This document shows positions 45,345 to 45,881 of a stretch of 64,000 nucleotides of DNA, piece by piece. The DNA is from Escherichia coli (GTDB taxonomy: Bacteria; Pseudomonadota; Gammaproteobacteria; Enterobacterales; Enterobacteriaceae): NCBI RefSeq assembly GCF_044647545.1, contig NZ_CP172818.1, one strand, 5' to 3'. A program made the translations under genes and the position numbers. Every line of letters starts with the position of its first letter. Within the stretch, counting starts at the first letter, position 1. The notes beneath the pieces were generated by a model. That model did not search any database. It had not been told where the DNA came from and saw only the letters and a program-made list of their open reading frames with translations.

Positions 45345-45881
45345 ATGTCATTTATCAAAACTTTTTCTGGGAAGCATTTTTATTATGACAGGATAAATAA
45401 AGACGACATCGATATTAACGATATCGCGGTTTCCCTTTCAAATATCTGTCGCTTTGCCGGTCATCTTTCGCACTTCTACAGCGTCGCCCAACATGCGGTT
45501 CTTTGCAGCCAGTTGGTGCCGCAGGAATTTGCTTTTGAAGCGTTAATGCATGATGCAACAGAAGCGTATTGCCAGGACATTCCCGCACCACTGAAACGCC
45601 TTCTTCCTGACTATAAACAAATGGAAGAAAAAATAGACGCCGTAATCCGTGAGAAATACGGGTTACCCCCAGTTATGAGTACGCCCGTGAAATATGCCGA
45701 TCTCATCATGCTGGCAACCGAACGCCGCGATCTCGGGCTTGATGATGGCTCTTTCTGGCCTGTACTGGAAGGTATCCCGGCAACAGAGATGTTCAACGTG
45801 ATTCCACTGGCTCCAGGCCATGCCTACGGGATGTTTATGGAACGCTTTAACGAATTATCGGAGTTACGAAAATGCGCATGA
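45345..45881 (+). CDS. yfdR: HD-domain phosphohydrolase (5'-deoxynucleotidase-like)
   Basis: 178 aa from ATG 45345 with GGAG RBS; H…HD metal-binding motifs (GHLSHFYSVAQH, LMHDATEAY). Confidence 0.65.
   Translation: MSFIKTFSGKHFYYDRINKDDIDINDIAVSLSNICRFAGHLSHFYSVAQHAVLCSQLVPQEFAFEALMHDATEAYCQDIPAPLKRLLPDYKQMEEKIDAVIREKYGLPPVMSTPVKYADLIMLATERRDLGLDDGSFWPVLEGIPATEMFNVIPLAPGHAYGMFMERFNELSELRKCA

Follow-up and report, generated by a model that had tools for sequence, protein, structure and literature searches.

An HD-domain gene of Escherichia coli is yfdR, a phage gene that is probably stranded in a remnant of prophage CPS-53/KpLE1

The best-documented activity of the YfdR protein of Escherichia coli K-12 is the binding of DnaA domain I and inhibition of initiation. 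YfdR binds DnaA domain I directly and in a Phe46-dependent manner, is the sole DnaA binder among YfdQ, YfdR, YfdS and YfdT (PMC4776307), and is a competitor of both DiaA and DnaB for DnaA (PMC4776307, PMC5448010). In K-12, initiation at oriC is inhibited by multicopy yfdR together with yfdQ and either yfdS or yfdT, and oriC replication in vitro is inhibited by extracts oversupplied with YfdQRST (PMC4776307). Nucleotide phosphatase activity has also been attributed to K-12 YfdR, with affinities far below those of YfbR (Zimmerman 2008, as cited in PMC4776307). The literature up to 2026 restates the YfdR-DnaA picture and adds nothing further. Here we describe an open reading frame (ORF) at 45345-45881 on the + strand of a 64,000-nucleotide stretch of E. 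coli DNA (contig NZ_CP172818.1, hereafter the window), which had been predicted from its sequence to be a 5'-deoxynucleotidase-like HD-domain gene forming a two-component unit with the ORF downstream. The ORF is yfdR, an already characterised gene of the cryptic prophage CPS-53/KpLE1, and its product is 98% identical to the K-12 protein of the published experiments. The feature was therefore already known, and the original prediction overlooked its DnaA-related activity.

We consider it highly probable that yfdR is a DnaA-binding HD phosphohydrolase gene from a phage early-left operon that is now a stranded passenger in a prophage remnant. It would be the third gene of a PL-type early-left operon, running from cI towards xis-int, of an SfIV/SfV-type temperate phage which now survives only as the 3.9-kb CPS-53/KpLE1 remnant. 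The gene is intact, and its product is an HD protein with the full catalytic set (H50, H69-D70, E73, D78 and D119) in the HDxxExxxxD spacing of the dNMP phosphatase YfbR. In a live phage the yfdP-yfdQ-yfdR block would be expressed immediately upon derepression, and may restrain host chromosome initiation, tune deoxynucleotide metabolism to the benefit of phage replication, or both. The window copy, in turn, would not be a member of a working system. The gene and its key codons are located as follows.

45345-45881, + strand: yfdR coding sequence, whose 178-residue product is a predicted HD phosphohydrolase with a single domain, belonging to the YfdR/Atu1052 family
45335-45338, + strand: Shine-Dalgarno GGAG, 6 nucleotides 5' of the yfdR ATG, read from the sequence
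45492-45578, + strand: codons of the yfdR catalytic core, from conserved columns of a 60-member alignment (A2), with HDxxExxxxD matched to YfbR
45492-45494, 45549-45554, 45561-45563 and 45576-45578, + strand: yfdR codons for H50, H69-D70, E73 and D78, respectively
45699-45701, + strand: codon for D119, the distal Asp of H..HD..D, at least 90% conserved in A2 and aligned to the conserved 'KKAD' of Atu1052

The reading frame runs uninterrupted from the ATG at 45345 to the TGA at 45879-45881. A mechanical ORF list begins it at GTG 45318 (187 residues), but the ATG is the start used by all homologs compared. YfdR is identical at all 178 residues (100%) to protein 32 (p32) of the functional Shigella phage SfIV, 96.6-98.3% identical to homologs of Stx2/Stx2c-converting and other E. 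coli phages, and identical to the K-12 MG1655 ortholog (WP_000008183.1) at 174 of 178 positions, the changes R16K, D23V, Q92R and E170D all falling at positions that are not conserved in A2. The complete E. coli genomes compared numbered 5,426, and megablast with 44300-46460 gave matches in 4,376 of them, under which the annotations are yfdQ, yfdR ('5'-deoxynucleotidase'), yfdS, yfdT and torI; most of the yfdQ-yfdS segment is present in 1,904 of the 5,426. An exhaustive HMMER search for the YfdR family, counted in clusters at 50% identity, gave 22,995 representatives when the limit was E<=1e-3 and 15,680 when it was E<=1e-10, and the AlphaFold 2 model of YfdR has a predicted local distance difference test score of 97.6. 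With the SfIV p32 match, these results place the ORF far beyond chance.

What defines the HD superfamily is an all-helical core bearing the metal ligands H...HD...D (Aravind & Koonin 1998), and YfdR belongs to this superfamily of metal-dependent phosphohydrolases. The motif that had been noticed at the outset is real, since H50, H69-D70 and D119 are conserved across A2, whose 60 members share 39-69% identity with YfdR; the columns that are invariant in A2, or conserved to 90% or more, take in R36, F37, G39, H40, H50, H69, D70, E73, D78, K84, D119 and E126. PHROG 318 ('deoxyribonucleoside 5' monophosphate phosphatase') covers the whole of YfdR with E 2.7e-110. Against the PDB, the A2 profile found Atu1052 (2gz4; E 6e-31) and also YfbR (E 1e-4). 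The YfdR segment 'ALMHDATEAYCQDIPAPLK' aligned to 'AMYHDASEVLTGDLPTPVK' of YfbR, matching YfbR H68, D69, E72 and D77, and the profile placed 'HDATEAYCQDIPAPLK' opposite YfbR 'HDASEVLTGDLPTPVK', the YfbR E72A mutant entries falling in the same column. To the confidently predicted fold of YfdR the nearest match was again Atu1052, followed by YfbR, DatZ, OxsA and HDDC2, which are small nucleotide 5'-phosphohydrolases.

YfdR thus has the catalytic HD-x-x-E and downstream Asp of the YfbR type, but fails on curated whole-protein scores: it reaches 25.2 bits against a cut-off of 25.9 with Pfam PF12917 (YfbR-like), over residues 41-104 only, and only 20.5 of the 122 bits that the NCBIfam 5'-deoxynucleotidase equivalog NF003009 sets as its cut-off. 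The YfbR-type class is further defined by specific, efficient, Co2+-dependent hydrolysis of 2'-deoxyribonucleoside 5'-monophosphates. Because of these profile, alignment and model results, we assign YfdR to the HD superfamily and, by full-length profile and representative structure, to the Atu1052/YfdR family, with a YfbR-type catalytic layout; on these comparisons it is a sister family of YfbR and not an equivalog. Of the 5'-deoxynucleotidase-like description, then, the HD part stands and agrees with the 5'-deoxynucleotidase label in RefSeq and PHROGs, whereas the specific activity sits less well with scores below the YfbR cut-offs and reported nucleotide affinities far weaker than YfbR's. 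Longer members of the family (P0122, P0127, P0128 and P0135, of 350-400 residues, and P0184, of 334 residues) include tandem-duplicated two-HD proteins and an HD domain fused to DUF6378. The only extra domains of such longer members were DUF6378 and Phage_BR0599, a marginal phage domain of no assigned function that scored below its Pfam cut-off, and they gave no functional hint.

In phages SfIV, Stx2a_WGPS2, ST64B and LLS the gene order is cI, yfdP, yfdQ, yfdR, variable genes, xis and int, and this cI-to-int arrangement is a PL-type early-left operon. The yfdR homologs of Yersinia phage YeP2 and Sinorhizobium phage phi2LM21 also lie between cI and int, without yfdP and yfdQ, while that of Burkholderia phage vB_FKKS2 lies between DNA ligase and DNA polymerase. 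Two metagenomic phage contigs with a yfdR homolog had neither a DUF2303 nor a DUF551 neighbour. Phages carrying YfdR-family proteins infect hosts as different as Bacillus, Caulobacter, Vibrio and Rhizobium. In ST64B, two genes 3' of the yfdR homolog and inside the early-left operon, sb33 (5838-6353 of the ST64B record, L004) encodes 171 residues, the N-terminal domain being that of a GmrSD restriction endonuclease (E 1e-17).

Relative to K-12, synonymous divergence (dS) is 0.086 for yfdQ, 0.25 for yfdR and 0.24 for yfdS, and the ratio of nonsynonymous to synonymous divergence (dN/dS) is 0.06, 0.04 and 0.03, respectively. The jump in dS from yfdQ to yfdR and yfdS points to a recombination breakpoint of the phage type in the yfdQ-yfdR spacer. 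Since a dS of 0.25 is typical of phage-to-phage mosaicism, the low dN/dS suggests that it was in phage lineages, not in the cryptic state, that purifying selection acted on yfdR.

The surroundings of yfdR bear out its placement in a prophage remnant, by synteny with K-12, by the argW and attR ends and by the match to SfIV. The remnant has the following further features.

42459-42499, + strand: 5' part (41 nucleotides) of the argW tRNA-Arg(CCU) gene fused to yfdM', the left remnant end, from sequence and comparison with the prophage-free locus
43919-43935, no strand assigned: deletion junction at which the immunity region (cII, cro, cI and PL/PR) was lost, from BLAST against SfIV and the SfIV annotation
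43965-44327, + strand: yfdP (120 residues, PHROG 204), first of the yfdP-yfdQ-yfdR block, in agreement with the K-12 annotation
44393-45217, + strand: yfdQ (Pfam DUF2303, E 7.7e-93), the conserved 5' neighbour of yfdR
46234-46341, + strand: yfdT remnant, frameshifted by the loss of 1 bp after codon 3 and cut short by a deletion of about 613 bp, from alignment to K-12
46342-46356, + strand: attR, the duplicated argW 3' end (CTGCAGGGGACACCA, 15 nucleotides), the right remnant end

The CPS-53/KpLE1 gene order yfdM-N-O-P-Q-R-S-T between argW and dsdC is retained, and 42516-46330 is 94.9% identical to K-12 at the nucleotide level and is followed by dsdC, dsdX and dsdA. YfdQ is identical to its K-12 counterpart at 271 of 274 residues and YfdS at 118 of 120; yfdQ adjoins yfdR in SfIV, Stx2a_WGPS2, ST64B and LLS as well, and YfdQ (DUF2303) had no recognisable fold neighbour. 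BLAST against SfIV (L002) aligned 42817-43935 of the window with 1-1150 of the phage record and 43919-46333 with 4566-6990, so that a 17-nucleotide stretch at 43919-43935 is common to both junction flanks. Relative to intact SfIV, the deletion of the immunity region includes part of a replication gene, and K-12 carries the same deletion. The window remnant is more decayed than that of K-12: everything from mid-argW through intS, yfdGHI, tfaS, yfdK and yfdL up to yfdM is gone, and the deletion of about 613 bp takes the rest of yfdT together with torI (excisionase/TorR inhibitor) and ends at the attR core. With both torI and intS lost, the remnant is unable to excise. Nowhere in the 5,426 genomes was 41200-42900 covered to at least 80%, the best matches stopping near 42504 and so not reaching the argW'/yfdM' junction. 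ARAGORN found no tRNA genes across the entire window, Rfam no RNA genes in 42300-46600, and no sigma-70-like promoter was seen on the + strand of 43700-46500. By its sequence, then, the remnant is about 3.9 kb long, locked in, and devoid of its native control region. Because the native promoter and repressor region are deleted, yfdR is probably poorly expressed in the window.

Downstream, yfdR overlaps a second gene.

45860-45863, + strand: yfdS ribosome-binding site GGAG, 8 nucleotides 5' of the yfdS ATG
45872-45881, + strand: 10-nucleotide overlap ATGCGCATGA of yfdS start and yfdR stop, the same in 131 of 137 non-redundant loci irrespective of the C-terminus encoded 3' of it
45872-46234, + strand: yfdS (120 residues), encoding a small Ea22-like mosaic made up of about 35 shared N-terminal residues, a coiled coil of short length and DUF551 as a portable domain

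The overlap with a 120-residue ORF was correctly recognised, the yfdS ATG lying at 45872 and yfdR ending at 45881. YfdS falls in PHROG 583, whose N-terminal module recurs in PHROGs 614 and 14548; it matches Pfam DUF551 at residues 50-117 and has coiled-coil-like matches at residues 29-56; a search for relatives of solved structure gave coiled-coil noise only. Searches for loci, whether made with YfdR by itself or with the alignment of its family, gave only near-identical E. coli and Shigella prophage loci; the 137 loci compared nearly all have a yfdR at least 96% identical, and divergent contexts were drawn from annotated phage records and contigs encoding homologs. The first 35 or so residues (MRMNVFEMEGFLRGKCVPRDLKVNETNAEYLVRKF) of the gene 3' of yfdR are usually shared, while the C-terminus is mostly DUF551; other loci have an Ead/Ea22 coiled coil there, or any of various domains of no known kind ending in ...RKGGNQ; in nine loci yfdS is swapped, at the same 10-nucleotide overlap, for a 292-residue protein with a PAPS-reductase domain. 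Variant genes of this sort, with a PAPS-reductase domain or altered C-termini, stand directly 3' of yfdR in loci L140, L157, L077 and L120, and in some loci the YfdS N-terminus is kept in proteins of 116-194 residues with Ead/Ea22 or unassigned C-termini. Ea22-family proteins have been described as mosaics with portable C-terminal domains including DUF551 (PMC10834534). No yfdS was found beside homologs 68% or less identical to YfdR, and no DUF551 neighbour in ST64B, LLS, YeP2, phi2LM21, vB_FKKS2 or the loci L163 and L164. Thus yfdR and yfdS do not show the conserved co-occurrence across homologs of an obligate unit. On gene order, the conserved module is yfdP-yfdQ-yfdR, with the conserved partners of yfdR upstream.

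This bears directly on the proposed two-component unit, in which YfdR would be a hydrolase of deoxynucleoside mono- or triphosphates that reshapes nucleotide pools and depends for its activity on the translationally coupled DUF551 protein YfdS. The overlap with its internal ribosome-binding site, the intact catalytic residues of YfdR and the nucleotide 5'-phosphohydrolases that make up all its structural neighbours are in keeping with such a unit, as are the need for YfdS or YfdT beside YfdQ and YfdR in the multicopy phenotype (PMC4776307) and the reported fusion of DUF551 to a phage dATP/dGTP pyrophosphohydrolase (PMC10834534). We nevertheless hold it to be quite improbable. The partner is interchangeable while yfdR stays at least 96% identical, and is absent from more distant phages and the metagenomic homologs; YfdS was pulled down neither with YfdR nor with DnaA, and YfdT, to which it is unrelated, can take its place (PMC4776307); and the nucleotide affinity reported at second hand is low. 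Since short overlaps join neighbouring genes throughout these operons, that of yfdR and yfdS reflects tight packing and not a dedicated unit. A role in host defence, with YfdR as an HD nuclease or dNTPase depleting nucleotides upon infection, had likewise been raised and finds no support. HD-domain dNTPases are known defence proteins and cryptic prophages often hold defence genes, but YfdR matched none of the defence-protein models of PADLOC, which include HD dNTPases, and we regard this role as extremely unlikely.

The remaining doubts concern what YfdR does and whether it still does anything. YfdR may be a stand-alone enzyme with a non-canonical physiological substrate, its DnaA binding being an enterobacterial addition or an artefact of overexpression. 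This is a tentative but real possibility, to which the near-invariance of H40, H50, H69, D70, E73, D78, K84, D119 and E126 across A2, the size of the family at E<=1e-10, the homologs that virulent and jumbo phages carry in unrelated hosts (in some cases next to DNA polymerase and ligase), the tandem-duplicated and DUF6378-fused forms and the cited low affinity for canonical nucleotides all lend weight. On the other hand, no alternative substrate is on record, purified YfdR binds DnaA directly through a Phe46-dependent contact (PMC4776307), and catalysis and DnaA binding can coexist. It is somewhat unlikely that yfdR is a functionless relic, intact only because the decay of the prophage is too recent. 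The loss or breakage of yfdT, int, xis (torI) and the immunity region with its promoter, the lack of phenotype of K-12 deletions (PMC4776307) and a dN/dS that would reflect selection on phages, not on the host, are what such a relic would leave, whereas yfdP, yfdQ, yfdR and yfdS are intact ORFs amid broken neighbours, the yfdQ-yfdS segment is largely kept in the 1,904 genomes, and stress phenotypes are reported for yfdS and yfdQ deletions (PMC3105296, PMC4776307). Several points also tell against the favoured explanation of a DnaA-binding early phage enzyme. Its enzymology is second-hand (Zimmerman 2008, as cited in PMC4776307); the initiation phenotype appears on overexpression only, its authors allowing for a possible artefact, and deletion of yfdQRST alters neither initiation nor hydroxyurea resistance (PMC4776307). 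Deletions of yfdK, yfdO and yfdS, but not of yfdR, sensitise cells to hydrogen peroxide (Wang et al. 2010, PMC3105296), and a yfdR knockout does not raise the yield of cytidine monophosphate (PMC10870394). In transcriptional profiling of E. coli CFT073, yfdR is tabulated among the nitric-oxide-responsive genes, with a fold change of 12.75 of unspecified direction (PMC5320621). Furthermore, the occurrence of the family in phages of diverse hosts, with a strictly conserved active site, argues for catalysis and not DnaA binding as the ancestral selected function. A more ambitious form of the DnaA-binding phage enzyme, in which active site and DnaA binding are one mechanism, seems improbable; YfdR would then be a nucleotide-sensing or nucleotide-processing initiation inhibitor with a non-canonical substrate, forming with YfdP and YfdQ a conserved three-gene module for host-replication takeover with which the PL operon of SfV/ST64B-type phages begins.

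The gene already bears a name, purification and assays of the K-12 ortholog have been carried out and its DnaA role is published, so the window yfdR is of little consequence as it stands. The analysis shifts the emphasis, from yfdR-yfdS to the module yfdP-yfdQ-yfdR and from YfbR to a sister family. If the physiological substrate of this phage HD family of about 23,000 clusters, or the link between catalysis and DnaA, were settled, it would clarify how temperate phages restrain host initiation right after induction.

Compared with the described phosphohydrolases, YfdR is closest to Atu1052 of Agrobacterium tumefaciens (26% identity), which is chromosomal and has short insertions; as a structural-genomics protein with no assigned function, it is uninformative on the function of YfdR. 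YfbR (PDB 2paq, 2par and 2pau; EC 3.1.3.89) is alignable by sequence over about 60 residues, with about 20% identity in structural alignment, and is a housekeeping gene whereas yfdR is phage-borne. DatZ, the dATP triphosphohydrolase of cyanophage S-2L (PDB 6zpa), and OxsA (PDB 5tk6) are distant in sequence, PHROG 7076 ('dATP triphosphohydrolase') matching YfdR at E 6e-5 only. The yfdR locus has no sign of a Z-genome gene set. The deoxynucleoside-5'-monophosphatase Dmp of phage T5 is a phage enzyme with the same nominal reaction, from deoxynucleoside monophosphate to deoxynucleoside; it was rejected as a homolog, the profile comparison being null (probability 0.1%) and Dmp belonging to PHROG 415, annotated as polynucleotide kinase. 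With the DnaA domain I binders DiaA, HobA, SirA, Dps and L2, K-12 YfdR shares a functional analogy and no relationship of sequence or fold; unlike these regulators it requires YfdQ and YfdS or YfdT in vivo, where its effect is one of overexpression. Lambda P offers a parallel as a phage early inhibitor of DnaA, K-12 YfdR being likewise a phage early protein able to restrain host initiation. The genes of K-12 CPS-53/KpLE1, SfIV p32 and the SfV homolog are the same gene as that of the window, with four conservative substitutions relative to K-12, and the yfdP-yfdQ-yfdR-yfdS order, the 10-nucleotide overlap and the argW-to-dsdC site are common to K-12/SfIV and the window.
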